From Escherichia coli (GTDB lineage: Bacteria > Pseudomonadota > Gammaproteobacteria > Enterobacterales > Enterobacteriaceae), in assembly GCF_045037415.1 (NCBI RefSeq), contig NZ_CP173440.1: 64,000 nt of DNA. One strand, 5' to 3'. Positions 34,801 through 43,800 of the stretch are shown piece by piece. Positions within the stretch are counted from its first letter, which is position 1; each line of letters starts with the position of its first letter. The position numbers are program-made.

Positions 34801-37800
34801 GGTAACAGACTGTCCGCCGTGGCTTTCAGCCAGCCATACAGCTTATGACCATTACCCGGAATGCCATCAAGCGTCAGTTTACGCGCGGTGAAGCTCCCGT
34901 CCTGCCTTCGGACCTTCCGCAGGAAGGTACCCAGAGGCTTACCAGACTCAACCGGCTCCGCCACAATCTAGTCATACCCTGGAAACTGATCGAGCATCAG
35001 GTCGATATACTCCCAGTCGAGGACGACAATGACGTGGCCATGAATGTCAGGGCCGTCATTCCACTGTATGGCAATGACATAAGGGAACAGCATGTCGTCG
35101 TGAACTCAGAGATACTGAACTAGGCTCTAGCTGGCCAGTTCACAACTGCCGGCCGGAAATGGCTTCAGCCAGTCACGCCAGAGGGAAGGTACCGGCTCAC
35201 CGGACCGTTCTCCGGCGGCCAGCTCCAGCGCCCGACGGAAGGCCTTCACACGGGCCCAGGTTTCCGCATTCATTTCTTTGCCTTCCCATCAGCACGCGCT
35301 AGGATCAGCAGGCTGAACGCGTCACGAATAACAACTCACTAGATACCATAGCCACCTGACTGCACAGGTAAATCAATGAATTCTGGCGGCCCGGCCAGTA
35401 CCTTTGTCAGATCCAGCGGTAGATGTATGACATTGGTCATTCACCGGCTAGGTTCACAAAGGTGATCTGGTGTGGGAAAGCGGAGCGTTTTACCAGAAAA
35501 TCAAATATAGTTGACAGGCAGGATATTACATATGGTCAACTCATGTGATCTGTATCTTATTATACGAAAAATGGAACTCATCTTAATATGTTGATATAAA
35601 ATCACTTTATATTGAAAACCTCATATTATGGCACACTGCCTGCGGTAGATAGTGCTAACGAAAAGCAGCCACTGATGATTGGCTCCCATATTGACACCGT
35701 TGTAAACGCCGGCGCTTTCGATGGTTGTTACGGTGTCCTGTCCGGCCTGGCTGTCGTCAGGGCTTTCAGAAAAGCCGGGATCAAACCTTCCCGCCCGATT
35801 ACTGTCGGCGCATTCACAAACGAAGAGGGTATCCGTTATCAACCCGATATGATGGGATCGCTCGTCTATGCAGGGGGGATCTCGCTGAAGAAAATCCTGG
35901 ACACTGTCGGCACTGATGGCACACGTCTGGGTGATGAGCTGCAGCGTATTGGCTATGCGGGAAACCTGGAGCCCGGCTCGATCGTCCCTCATGAATACAT
36001 TGAACTGCACATCGAACAGGGACCTGTTCTTGAAGCCGAAGGGATCCAGATCGGTGCTGTCGAAAATCTTCAGGGAATTTCCTGGCAGGAAATCACCATC
36101 AAAGGCACGGCAAACCATGCAGGCACCACGCCGACACGGCTACCCGTTCTTACGATCCGGCAGTCTAGGAAATGCTTGAAAAACGGATGCGTGTTATCTG
36201 TAATTCTGTTTGCGCAATGCACGAAGCAGAATGTGAATTCATTTACACACATGAGTTTTCACCTACAGTCGATCATCCGCGGGAAACTGCATATGCAATT
36301 GACGCAGCGGTTCGCGTATTCGGCGAAAAAAATGTGGATTCCACGGTGACGTGTTCATACTCAAATCTCCTGCAATATGGGAGATTTGAGTATGGTTGTA
36401 CCTTGTGAGCGAACAGCGGGAATTCGCAAATGTTTCACATCTGATCAAGGCATTACTTAAAGGATGCTGTGGTAGCCAACGGGGAGCAGGTCAAAGCAAT
36501 TACAAATTGGTTTGAATTGCAACATCATGCAAATAAATGTTATGTTATCACATTACTTAAGTGGCATATACAGTGACATGAACAACAATCTTCCTTATCC
36601 AATACCTGTGCTTGATGTTAAAAGCGTCAGCATTTCTACGGGCCATTCTGCTCTGGTTAGCGATGTCAGCTTTCGGCTCCAACAAGGCGAGCGGGTCTGT
36701 ATTATCGGCTCATCAGGGTCAGGTAAGTCTCTGACGGCAAAAGCCATTATAGGTACATTGTCTGCCGGGCTGTTATTACAAGGAAGCATTCGTATAAACG
36801 GTGCGGATGTCGTTGGCCTTCATCCCACCCGGCGCCCTCAGCATGCGCTGGTATCCGCCATCTTTCAGGACTCTTCCACCGCGCTGAACCCGCTGATGCC
36901 GGTGGGGCGACAGCTTGCTCTGGCGTTGAAAACAGGTGATAACGCGATGCTGGGCTCTTTGCTGGATGCGCTACAGCTCAGCGATATCCCTCAATTGCTC
37001 TCCCGCTACCCGGCAGAGCTTTCCGGTGGGCAGCGTCAGCGGATTTGCATCGCGCTGGCGTTGCTGGGGAATAATCGCCTGCTGGTTGCTGATGAACCGA
37101 CGACGGCACTGGATGTGATTAGCCAGCAGCAGGTTTTGCAGATATTAGTTCAGGGTTCCACGATGAGAGCTCCGCCTGCGTTGCTCTTCATCACACATGA
37201 TATTGCCGTTGCCACACAGTTGTGCCAGCGAGGTATCGTGGTGGAAAAAGGCAGGATTGTGGAGTCAGGCACAATGGACCAGCTCCTGAACGAGCCGGAG
37301 CATCCTTACACCCGCAAATTGGTACGGGCCGCGCGAGCCGCTGAACAGACGTTGTTAACACACACCCGTGAGGTGCTCGCCGGATGAGTATTCCCCTGCA
37401 GATGGCATCCGACTCCTTCATTCAGGTCGACAGGATTTCCCGCTACCGGAGTCACCCCGGACTCCCTTGGCAGAAGACCCTGCCAGTGAATGCCATTCTT
37501 AAAGATTTTTCGCTCACACTGCGTCAGCATGAGCGTGTTGGCCTGTTAGGATGTTCGGGCTGTGGAAAATCGACGTTACTGAAAGCTATCTTGGCCCTCG
37601 ACCCGGTAGATGACGGTGAGGTGTATTGTGATGGAAAGGTGGTCAGGCCCGGCTCTGCCCGAATATTGCGCTGGTATCGCCGCAGGGTTCAGTACCTTCC
37701 TCAGGAACCCGCCAGTACGTTGCCGCCGTCAATGCGTGTCAGAGAGATTCTCAACGAGCCGCTAAGACATTTAGGCTGCAACCGTGATGCGTCACCTAAT

Positions 37801-40800: not shown

Positions 40801-43800
40801 AAAAAAGCCCGTGAAACGCCAGCGGGTGAAACCCGACGTCAGGCCATTATGGACGCTGAAAACATGATCCTTGCCAGTGATGCTGCGATCCCAATACTAC
40901 ATGAGCGCGTCATTCAGGGAGAAAGTGCGGTAGTGAAAAATGCGCTCCGTGACCCTCGCGAGCGCACGCTCATCGACAGCCAGACCCAATTAGTCGCTGG
41001 CGAACATACTACTGCTGCGCAGTAAAACAGGGGTTATTGATCAATGAGCGAATCGCTGTACTGCCGGACCTGCGCCAGGATCCATCGGGCAGGTAACCTG
41101 CCAAAAGGCTTAGTGGCAACGTTGCTGTCGCGGATAATTACGCTGACCGGTATTGTCGTGCTGATCGGGATGCTGCCTTGGGTATCGGGCCAGGATCCCG
41201 CCATGGCGCTGCTGAGAGCGCGTTCTGCCGAACAGGAAGCAACCCCGGAAGCATTAGCAGCGATTCGCCAGTCGCTGGGGTTCGATCAGGGCCCTGTGCA
41301 ACTCCTGCTGCACTGGCTCAGCGGCCTCTTGCAGGGGGATGCAGGTAACTCTTGGATATCAGGGCGCCCGGTGCTGCCTGACATGATCCAGGCAGCCCAG
41401 GTGTCACTGACGCTGATGCTGATGTCCGCCGTGGTGGCACTGCTGCTGGCGGCGATGATTTGCCTGCCGACATTCCGACGAGGCCTGCAGGGGCGGTCGT
41501 TTCGTTCGACGGGCTTTTTCGCGTCAGTATTCACCGCATTACCTGAATTTCTTCTGGCGTCATTCTTACTGGTCGTTGGGGCCGTCTGGCTGGAGTGGTT
41601 TCCTCCTTACGGCTGGAACGGCCTGCACTATGCGGTGCTGCCCGCGCTGGCAATGGGGATCCCGGCAGGTGGCTATCTGGGGCGGATATTCTCGGATGCT
41701 TTAGCGGCAACCTTTAGTGAAAACTGGATAATCACCTGGACCGTCTCCGGGATATCGCGTTGGCACATTACCTGCGCGGTACTTAAGCGAACGCTCTCCA
41801 CCGTTATGCCGTTAATTGGCCTGGTTTTGGTGTCATTGACGGGCAGTGCAGTGGCCGTGGAAAAGGTCTTCGCCATTCCGGGGCTCGGCAGGGCAACGCT
41901 CGGTGCCGTAGTTGCACAGGATCTTCCGGCGCTGCAAATGGGCGTGCTCTTCCTGCTCATCATTGCATTTATGTTCGGAATGCTGTGTGCGGGGATCAGA
42001 TACCTCATTCTGGGGCGGGCGTTACGCACGTCCTCTCTGCCGGTCACCAATGAACCTGACGGAAAAAGCGGGAAATTGTCGCTGTTGCTTCCGTTCGCCT
42101 GTGGCGTTGCGTTGGTCGTGCTTCTGCTTATTGGTCTGCCCCGTGATCCTTACTCGTCTGAGTTTATGCGACTGGCTCATCCTTCCTTTTCGCTGCCCTT
42201 TGGGGCCGATGCCATGGGGCGTGATTTGCTGGCCAGAGTGGCCTACGGCACAGTGCATACCTGCATGCTGGCGCTGATGGTGTCGCTTATTTGTCTGCTA
42301 CTGGGGCTGGTTATTGGTCTTTTCCCCAGGGTATTTGTGGGACCGACAGAGATGGCAAATGCGCTGCCTCCGGTGATTGCGGGCTTACTGGTGGTTTCCA
42401 TCAGTGGCCCCGGCAGTTTAGGTGCGGCCATTGCGATTGCAGCAGTAGGCTGGGCGCCTCTTGCCACACATACCGCGGCGCTGGCGACAGAAATTCGCGC
42501 CAGACCTTATATCAACATGCTTCCTGTTCTGGGGGTTGGCTGGCTACGTCAGAATCTGTTTTACATTTTTCCGGCACTAATTGGCCCTCTCTTTCGTCAT
42601 GCTATGCTGCGCTTACCGGGGATCGCCCTAGCTTTGGCTTCACTGGGTTTTCTCGGGCTGGGCGCATCACCGCCGGAGCCGGAATGGGGAAGGGTACTTG
42701 CGGAAGGAATGCCTTATCTGGAGCGCGCCTATTGGGTCGTTCTGGCACCTGCAGTCGCCCTTGCCGTTTTGTCGGTGATGGGCGTGAGTCTGGCCGGTCT
42801 GACGGGTCAAAAAAAGTAAAAGCGTTCCATACGTTGCTATCACTATGACTGCAATGTCGAACACCTTTAAACACGTGATTCTGTTACCAGGATTAAGTCG
42901 AGATTATTTTGAAATAACTCTGCACACTTTTTCACCGAAATTATGCTGGTGCCCATCGTCGGGCGAAGTTAGACTGAAATGTTGAGTTAAACAAGGGGGC
43001 AAAAATGAAAGTGTTAAGTATTGTCGGGGCAACGCTGTTGGTCACGTCATTCCATGCTGCCGCATTTGTTTCTGTATCGCCGGTGCCTGCGGGGCAAAAT
43101 GCGAACGTCAGTCCTGCTGCAAACAACGGACACGCTATTCCTTCTGAAGCGGTCAATGCTGACATAACAAAGATCATTCCGATCGCTGGCTGTCACTGCG
43201 CTTTCTGCAACTCGTTGCGCGCCGCTAACCTTTGACCCCTTCTTCAGGCCTGGGTTTATCAACATTCAGGCCCTGAGTCCGCTCCTGACGTGCCGTAGGC
43301 CATGAGTATGATGGCCTGCTCCTGCCTTTCACCTGTACCCCACCTTACCGCCCAGTCGTTTATTTCACCCTTTACGGGCTGACTTGCCGCGAAAAAGCTT
43401 CCCGTACATTCCATTAACACATCCCACGCAGCGTAGATTCAAAGAGAACTCTGTAGGAGATGTTAACAATGCCATATAAGAAAGCCTCTGTATTTGAAGA
43501 TCCCCGTTTACCTGTCCCCGCTCTCTGATTTCACCCAGTCGGCGGATAAAGACTGCACGCGCAAGGGCATTGCGGGCCTCACCTTTATTCAACCCTGCCT
43601 GTACGCGTCGACGCAGGGAAGGCTCCCGGAACCAGTAATGGCCGTGAAGCGACTGTGCAATGCGCTGTTTGGCAGAACGGGCAGCCAGTGGCTGATTGTG
43701 GAAGTTTTTGGGGAGAAAGGGCGACAGCACCGCAGTACGGACAGTAACCCGGAGGCCGTTGAAAAGATGGTCAGGCATGTGATAAACCCAGTAACACCTG

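Follow-up and report, generated by a model that had tools for sequence, protein, structure and literature searches.

What does a Nik/Opp-type importer carry when its genes stand behind a Zur-type box, enclose an efflux-type transporter and have no metallophore biosynthesis genes beside them? The question is raised by an operon at positions 36535-42819 of a 64,000-nt stretch (the window) of the Escherichia coli contig NZ_CP173440.1 (assembly GCF_045037415.1), which encodes two ATPases of an ATP-binding cassette (ABC) transporter, a transporter from the major facilitator superfamily (MFS), a family-5 lipoprotein substrate-binding protein (SBP) and a single fused permease. From the sequence alone it had been taken for a metallophore or metal-chelate shuttle on the analogy of the opine-metallophore (Cnt) systems (below, the sequence-only reading). 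The comparative analysis described here favours, with slightly better than even confidence, a Zur-repressed high-affinity zinc importer, which would belong to a widespread uncharacterised operon family in the Nik/Cnt branch of the PepT-type ABC transporters. This family is probably an overlooked zinc-scavenging route.

The box, the gene order and the elevated GC content described in the sequence-only reading were all confirmed. Five co-directional open reading frames (ORFs) on the plus strand are separated by gaps of -4, 26, 10 and 18 nt, the first two genes thus overlapping by 4 nt, and the operon has a GC content of 55.8% compared with 47.4% for the window. Domains were assigned with Pfam and NCBIfam models. 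The first ATPase (36578-37387; ABC_tran) is NikD/CntD-like (NikD 185 bits, CntD 181 and CntF 180, all under cut-off) and ends in an oligo_HPY remnant that is matched weakly (25 bits against a cut-off of 27). The ORF callers offered alternative starts for this gene at 36512 (TTG) and 36542 (ATG, chosen by PGAP); tblastn alignments to homologues begin at residue 1 of the 269-aa form. The second ATPase (37384-38217; ABC_tran) is NikE-like, with NikE scores of 188 and 175 bits. It is followed by the MFS transporter (38244-39488), which is of the drug:H+ antiporter type and MdtH-like, and by the SBP (39499-41025; SBP_bac_5), which has the lipobox LLLTG-C23. The 591-aa permease (41044-42819) is a true fusion, as had been proposed: residues 27-314 match NikB/Opp1B, residues 366-585 match NikC/Opp2C, BPD_transp_1 is found in two stretches, and there are 12 hydrophobic segments. 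Together, SBP_bac_5 (205 bits), the BPD_transp_1 domains and two ABC_tran ATPases make up the signature of a PepT-type importer, that is, one with a family-5 SBP. The importer components obtain their best NCBIfam scores on nickel and metallophore models and score poorly on Dpp and Opp models, and no curated cut-off is reached.

The Zur box, AAATGTTATGTTATCACATTA, occupies positions 36535-36555; relative to the ATG at 36578 it lies 23-43 nt upstream, and it differs from AAATGTTATNNTATAACATTT at two positions. Only two sites in the 64 kb lie within three mismatches of the enterobacterial Zur consensus, this one and another at 24329-24349, where shuffled sequences lead one to expect 0.04. The box overlaps a possible promoter, TTGCAA-N18-TATGTT, whose hexamers were read by eye only; a sigma-70 promoter scan gave no consensus match at the box. 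Neither a Fur box nor a NikR operator was found upstream of the operon, the best match to GTATGA-N16-TCATAC being mismatched at 5 of 12 positions.

Homologues of the SBP are encoded in the chromosomes of Enterobacter, Pantoea, Pectobacterium, Brenneria, Rahnella, Dickeya, Serratia, Erwinia, Vibrio and Marinomonas (67-96% identity), where none has a specific name and some relatives are annotated 'peptide/nickel'. An SBP scan of one genome per species confirmed at least 584 homologous loci, and the family comparisons below use the best 80 of them, picked by SBP similarity. These 80 also take in Halomonas/Vreelandella, Kushneria and Rhizobium, as well as the actinobacteria Streptomyces, Kineococcus, Kribbella, Arthrobacter and Saccharothrix (63-69% SBP identity). 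According to tblastn, the core of two ATPases, SBP and fused permease is kept across the 80 loci, and the permease fusion can be called conserved because one alignment covers both halves in most homologues. In Streptomyces, Kribbella and Saccharothrix the ATPase genes come after the SBP and permease genes, not before them; for the high-GC actinobacterial loci the coordinates were taken from tblastn, simple ORF calls being unreliable there.

Conservation of the regulatory site extends through this family. Of the 66 proteobacterial loci whose upstream sequence could be used, 57 have the Zur-box core TGTTATNNTATAACA, with up to two mismatches, 11-62 nt ahead of their first ATPase gene; the background in the same loci is 0.006 per 220 nt. 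The other nine comprise seven loci of Halomonas/Vreelandella, where CGTTATATCATAACG variants are present in most cases, and one locus each from Rhizobium and Symbiopectobacterium, both with weaker matches. Actinobacterial homologues have no proteobacterial-type Zur box. In Streptomyces, Saccharothrix and Kribbella, TGAAAAYGATTGTCA-like sites with one to three mismatches to TGAAAATGATTTTCA are located at -74 to -123 from the SBP gene, and they agree with the ChIP-derived Zur motif of S. coelicolor, tGaNNatSatNNtCa (PMC5472717). Because of the box in the proteobacterial loci and the actinobacterial motif in these three genera, Zur control appears to be a conserved trait of the family, in line with the sequence-only reading. 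Two lineage-specific Zur motifs at one type of operon are strong comparative evidence for predicted zinc-responsive control; actual repression by Zur is what we infer from them.

The specificity determinant of the system is the SBP, and by model score and structure its nearest relatives are the nickel-chelate binders. Among NCBIfam models, it scores 193 bits over its full length on Opp5A_nikA, the model of Staphylococcus aureus NikA (SaNikA; cut-off 600), 94 on TIGR02294 nikA (393), 90 on GsiB (594), 62 on DppA (1005), 61.6 on the opine-binding protein CntA (NF047575 opine_bind_CntA; 800) and 27 on OppA (947). Ranked by sequence, the solved structures are headed by 3t66 ('nickel ABC transporter'), followed by 5u4o and SaNikA, with AccA, GsiB, E. 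coli NikA, DppA and CntA behind; the CntA structures (5yh5 and related) reach 50-63 bits, well under SaNikA and 3t66. In Foldseek, the AlphaFold model of the SBP (mean pLDDT 86) is matched best by SaNikA (3rqt/4xkr, including a complex with a Ni-(His) chelate), then by 3t66 and 5u4o, and DppA and GsiB follow not far behind. Since the best NCBIfam score and the best Foldseek matches both fall on the SaNikA type, the SBP family is a branch of its own nearest that type. The Nik/Cnt affiliation given in the sequence-only reading thus stands in that Nik and Cnt models outscore Dpp and Opp, but the SBP itself is not CntA-like; nor do the model scores place it with the di- and oligopeptide binders.

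SaNikA holds Ni-(His)2 through an arginine and aromatic residues and leaves the metal untouched (10.1101/2022.10.03.510666). In the plasmid protein, the motif around R350 (TFSDRAELPEVA) aligns with the arginine motif of SaNikA and 3t66, and H468 aligns with a histidine of 3t66. Invariant residues of the family include D56-D57, H106-D107, H261 and H468-E469. The lipobox C23 and a phenylalanine at +2 are likewise invariant in 40 aligned proteobacterial homologues. Under the +2 rule, any residue other than aspartate at this position would send a Gram-negative lipoprotein to the outer membrane, which would make the phenylalanine odd for the SBP of an ABC importer. Taken with the GC-rich composition, it may hint that the module is of Gram-positive origin.

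Among the core parts the SBP is the best conserved in 78 of 78 loci (median identity 69%; the ATPases reach 50-54% and the permease 61%), although retrieval of the loci by SBP similarity may inflate this difference. Conservation of the SBP above the other parts is unusual for an ABC importer and would fit an invariant ligand.

The genes around the operon likewise speak to the ligand. As the sequence-only reading had remarked, no nicotianamine-synthase or opine-dehydrogenase gene was found, either in the plasmid annotation around the operon or among the scanned ORFs of the window (some small ORFs remaining unscanned), and the same absence extends to the flanks of all 80 homologous loci. When all ORFs of these loci were clustered, no neighbour was shared beyond genus-level synteny; those scanned are unrelated housekeeping or transport genes (arylsulfotransferase, AMP nucleosidase, EamA, DUF444, citrate-type transporter, TonB receptor, CstA, SodC, purF/purM and proline dehydrogenase). 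The available part of a CntM survey (PMC7438024) makes no mention of Klebsiella pneumoniae, Pectobacterium, Rahnella, Dickeya, Brenneria or Halomonas. Finally, the module moves between hosts as a mobile unit, with SBPs 95-96% identical in Enterobacter hormaechei. The lack of linked biosynthesis genes combined with this mobility suggests a ligand independent of the host; with the host genera missing from that part of the survey added, it argues against a dedicated self-made opine metallophore and favours a ubiquitous or environment-supplied ligand. For the actinobacterial homologues, the EDDS (aes) zincophore was considered and dropped, no SbnA/SbnB-like genes flanking those loci.

Two lineage-specific neighbours might be accessory parts of the transport system. 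In Rahnella (locus L018), an EamA/DMT transporter gene (13299-14228) lies directly downstream of the operon, and in Serratia (L039) a TonB-dependent receptor gene (4620-6890) lies upstream of it; no Zur box was found in front of either gene. EamA/DMT is the exporter class to which Pseudomonas CntI belongs.

The embedded MFS transporter is the most variable component of the family. Its full-length MFS_1 match (110 bits) suggests the 12 transmembrane segments ascribed to it in the sequence-only reading, whereas a strict, crude hydropathy scan gave nine. The best NCBIfam match is MdtH, and with 135 bits where the cut-off is 469 the protein does not qualify as an equivalog; a CntE model does not figure among the 25 best NCBIfam matches listed, possession of such a model by the library being unconfirmed. 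Related loci have the transporter in 31 of 80 cases, and it is embedded in the operon in 27 of 81 when the window's own plasmid locus is counted. Its absence within 10 kb of the remaining 49 implies that it is not essential to the core function. In a neighbour-joining SBP tree the embedded MFS gene defines one enterobacterial clade composed of Rahnella, Pectobacterium, Brenneria and a group of Kluyvera, Pantoea and the plasmid; Ewingella and Hafnia psychrotolerans are nested in this clade yet have no MFS gene, which implies secondary loss. Given its absence from those 49 loci and the single enterobacterial clade that the embedded gene marks, the ancestral operon probably had four genes.

Elsewhere the same subfamily occurs in other arrangements. 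For example, the MFS gene of Arthrobacter is embedded in the same slot (44% identity), that of Kribbella is the last gene of the operon (41%), and those of Kineococcus (47%) and Vibrio (35%) are convergent downstream, the Vibrio gene with a Zur-like box of its own at its start. Closer homologues (65-71% identity) belong to a Peripla_BP_2-FecCD-ATPase-MFS module in Enterobacter, Serratia marcescens, Raoultella and Siccibacter (L082, 5188-9221; L084, 5193-9242; L086, 3926-8242; L087, 4189-8242), and the region upstream of these cassettes holds a Fur-like box, AATAATGAGTTTCATTTGC, and no Zur box. In the Siccibacter cassette the MFS gene is divergent, and the Raoultella cassette is placed in the middle of another Opp-type operon. 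The chelate-type ABC system of the window itself (58000-60809) was compared with these cassettes and is not one of them, the identity being only 26-37%. The suspicion that the MFS gene is a late insertion is therefore half justified: it is absent from most loci, and its embedded form is limited to one enterobacterial clade and Arthrobacter, but the subfamily has been recruited in at least four other arrangements and alongside a FecCD importer. One MFS subfamily that repeatedly joins two unrelated classes of metal-chelate importers likely handles a chelator, as an optional enhancer and not as a core part. The drug:H+ antiporter-like family argues that this would most simply happen by efflux, and the pairing of import and efflux would accordingly be functional but optional.

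These observations can be combined into the following candidate mechanism. In zinc-replete cells, zinc-loaded Zur would occupy the promoter-overlapping box and repress the operon, and zinc starvation would lift the repression. The lipoprotein SBP would then take up zinc in the periplasm, likeliest bound to a small chelator of the carboxylate or amino-acid type (Zn-(His)2-like) or to another ubiquitous or foreign metallophore; the cell would need no dedicated genes to make the chelator. The complex would be handed to the fused NikBC-like permease, driven by the two ATPases, while the embedded MFS transporter, as an optional add-on, would pump out free chelator, either for secretion or for recycling or detoxification of the imported ligand. 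We infer both zinc as the cargo and its chelated form. A further-reaching version is tentative, and we consider it possible though not probable: a new, biosynthesis-independent class of zinc acquisition in which the SBP would recognise zinc held by a small ligand of universal occurrence, for instance in a Zn-amino-acid complex, the optional MFS transporter would recycle that ligand ('import and recycle'), and the plasmid-borne version together with its Zur island would help a pathogen to evade zinc withholding by the host.

Several points weigh against the zinc-importer reading. None of the curated models reaches its cut-off, the SBP is only 22-25% identical to SaNikA, and the best Foldseek hit leads DppA and GsiB by no more than about three orders of magnitude in score. 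The ligands of family-5 SBPs include peptides, opines, sugars and haem besides metal chelates, and in Klebsiella the operon has no outer-membrane receptor linked to it. With only 34-41% identity, the ATPases of Streptomyces, Kribbella and Saccharothrix are perhaps not orthologues, and the way in which the loci were retrieved bears on the SBP conservation, as noted above. A further point is the MFS transporter, which most loci lack, whose assumed direction of transport is borrowed from its family, and whose subfamily is not zinc-specific, since the FecCD cassettes stand behind a Fur-like and not a Zur box.

Two other explanations keep the operon within metal transport by a Zur-controlled system and differ in the ligand. 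In an opine-metallophore (Cnt-like) shuttle, the MFS transporter would export a nicotianamine-like zincophore produced by cntL/cntM located elsewhere, or the importer would pirate molecules of the staphylopine, pseudopaline or yersinopine type. The S. aureus system CntABCDF with CntE and CntKLM does resemble the operon, in which control is predicted: it is zinc-repressed and combines a PepT/Nik-type importer, a family-5 lipoprotein SBP, two ATPases and an MFS transporter in one operon. The plasmid ATPases score nearly equally on CntD/CntF and NikD, the N-terminal half of the permease is best matched by Opp1B (CntB), so that these parts score almost best on Cnt models, and the known opine clusters use importers of the NikABCDE or FecCD type (PMC7438024), both of which are paired with this MFS subfamily. 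The analogy nevertheless finds no support where it is most specific, and we regard such a shuttle as unlikely. The SBP obtains 62 bits on CntA compared with 193 on SaNikA and the CntA structures rank low; CntE is not among the listed MFS matches; neither the operon nor any of the 80 loci has linked cntKLM; the main host genera go unmentioned in that part of the survey; and a species-specific metallophore would not predict SBPs that are 63-70% identical between Klebsiella and Streptomyces. The architecture differs as well, with fused permeases, the order ATPase-ATPase-(MFS)-SBP-permease, and no MFS gene in most homologues. Alternatively, the SBP could bind Zn2+ directly through its invariant His, Asp and Glu residues, as NikZ-type proteins do with Ni2+, the MFS transporter being unrelated or having a tuning role. 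NikZ-type family-5 SBPs bind Ni(II) with no added chelator, by means of a C-terminal His-His prong and a conserved Arg (10.1101/2022.10.03.510666). An invariant H468-E469 near the C-terminus, with the 3t66 histidine aligned to H468, would suit such a chelator-free importer, and a bare-ion ligand fits both an SBP that is so highly conserved and an MFS transporter that 49 of the 80 loci do without. However, the SBP has no GHHG prong, its nearest structural relatives are of the SaNikA type, which leave the metal untouched, and it would go unexplained why a single efflux-type MFS subfamily was recruited repeatedly and independently, so this explanation, too, seems improbable to us.

The other two explanations give up zinc as the cargo. 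Under zinc starvation the importer might bring in a peptide or metabolite that the cell would otherwise need zinc enzymes to synthesise, alongside the zinc-independent paralogues of the island: Zur regulons hold many non-transport 'sparing' functions (PMC2770081), the neighbouring island consists entirely of such paralogues, most family-5 SBPs bind peptides or other metabolites, and DppA, GsiB and AccA are among the structural neighbours. Such a zinc-sparing role is a doubtful candidate nonetheless, as the importer components are best matched by nickel and metallophore models and not by Dpp, Opp or Gsi, the partner MFS transporter also pairs with FecCD/Peripla_BP_2 importers of the metal-chelate class, and the gene neighbourhoods gave no candidate metabolite. 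An importer of nickel or cobalt, with an upstream palindrome that is Zur-like by accident, would account for nickel transporters being the best curated families and for relatives annotated 'peptide/nickel'. It is very hard to reconcile with the lineage-appropriate Zur motifs kept in two phyla, the co-localisation of the operon with Zur-regulon genes, the lack of a NikR operator and scores far under the cut-off on all Nik models, and we give it very little credence.

The favoured zinc importer can also be set against the characterised transporters that it resembles. NikABCDE (Opp5) of S. aureus is the closest, both as a curated family and in solved structures of the SBP; the arginine motif is common to the two, and the ligand logic is likely the same, namely metal on a common amino-acid chelator with no dedicated biosynthesis. 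The operon departs from it in the low SBP identity, a score far under 600, the Zur box, the fused permease, the occasional MFS gene and a putative cargo of zinc rather than nickel. NikABCDE of E. coli is of the same transporter superfamily, and its SBP binds a metal-chelate complex and not a peptide, but the NikA model gives 94 bits where 393 would be needed, the NikR operator is missing, and gene order and permease architecture differ. In the ZnuABC/ZniCBA systems a ZnuA-type SBP and a permease handle bare Zn2+. Those of K. pneumoniae (PMC10797113) would share with the operon a presumed Zur-controlled uptake of zinc across the inner membrane under limitation; they are built from unrelated protein families and are chromosomal, whereas the operon is on a plasmid. 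Co-encoding of a metal-chelate ABC importer with an MFS pump has parallels in fepB-fepDGC with the exporter EntS and in the Peripla_BP_2-FecCD-ATPase-MFS cassette, the latter with the same MFS subfamily. The cassette differs in its FecCD/Peripla_BP_2 importer and its Fur-like box, and EntS systems adjoin biosynthesis genes. The parts of the family and its general logic are thus already known from the Cnt, Nik and Znu systems. The combination, a family linked to Zur in two phyla, with a fused permease, an SBP as its most conserved part, no linked biosynthesis genes and an optional MFS transporter shared with FecCD-type cassettes, was not found described in the literature searched. Nor did that literature yield any characterisation of the operon, its family or the plasmid zinc island; it holds only a 2009 prediction of two other Zur sites on the plasmid pLVPK.

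The DNA itself is a K. pneumoniae hypervirulence plasmid of the pLVPK type, because the annotated flanks hold peg-344, rmpA and rmpD; the distance from the operon to peg-344/rmpA is 8.5 kb. The 6.5 kb around the operon are 100% identical to large IncFIB/IncHI1B plasmids of K. pneumoniae. The operon region recurs at 99% identity or more in 499 plasmid records, to which Klebsiella contributes 479 and E. coli 20, and in the E. coli genome collection it is confined to plasmids, several of which come from conjugation assays. Remains of mobile elements flank the operon. Upstream is a truncated M20 (allantoate-amidohydrolase-like) gene fragment (35612-36349) and downstream a pair encoding a cyclophilin-like protein and a DkgA-like aldo/keto reductase (43820-45135); these are bounded by IS630 on the upstream side and IS110 on the downstream side, and neither joins the operon in any other genome among the 80 loci compared.

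A block of zinc-independent paralogues and zinc chaperones lies 3.5 kb upstream of the operon (20493-33020). Its products are FolE2, DksA2, CysRS, HisI and ZigA (an equivalog; 702 bits, cut-off 600), together with an AmiA-like amidase, a PTPS/QueD-like protein, a gamma-carbonic anhydrase, a COG0523 protein, a flavoprotein with a FeoB-like protein, and two regulators, one of the Fur family and one Zur-like (32496-33020). Further Zur-like boxes are found in this island at 24329, 27618 and 32391. Two of these boxes, at dksA2-folE2-cam (LV190) and hisI2-yciC (LV196), had been predicted for pLVPK by Haas et al. (2009), whose table does not list the ABC operon. The box at 27618, which precedes the flavoprotein/FeoB-like pair, and the two Fur-family regulators of the plasmid seem to have gone undiscussed in the literature. 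In Kluyvera and in Pantoea sp. B65 the operon is flanked by the same island genes (91-97% identity), and in Pectobacterium and Brenneria dksA2 adjoins it. On the virulence plasmid, a mobile Zur-regulon island holds the operon as one of its modules, along with ZigA, DksA2, FolE2, HisI2, gamma-carbonic anhydrase, CysRS2 and the Zur-like regulators.

What looks like a second Zur-associated module is located at 57541-63904. It begins with a Zur-like box, TCGTTGTTATGTTATAACATTAA (57541-57563), and a decayed COG0523 fragment with a GCICCT motif, followed by a FecCD-type ABC system (ATPase, 58000-58827; Peripla_BP_2, 58846-59805; FecCD, 59775-60809). Past these genes come a CobW_C fragment, a methyltransferase gene and a full COG0523 gene on the minus strand (62666-63904). 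On the near side of this module, a CRISPR-associated protein and a DEAD/ResIII helicase (Cas3-like?) are present as fragments on the minus strand (54689-56220), with a DDE transposase gene alongside (56332-57300).

Zinc withholding is a major host defence, and zinc uptake in K. pneumoniae has been studied only for the chromosomal ZnuCBA and ZniCBA systems (2024 study, PMC10797113). If the operon does import zinc, the virulence plasmid would hold a zinc-starvation kit of its own, which would be a new candidate determinant of virulence or fitness and a possible drug target. More broadly, the homologous loci, at least 584 in number and spread across soil, plant, marine and clinical bacteria, would define a Zur-regulated transporter family, and its ligand would show in which chemical form bacteria harvest zinc from the environment.

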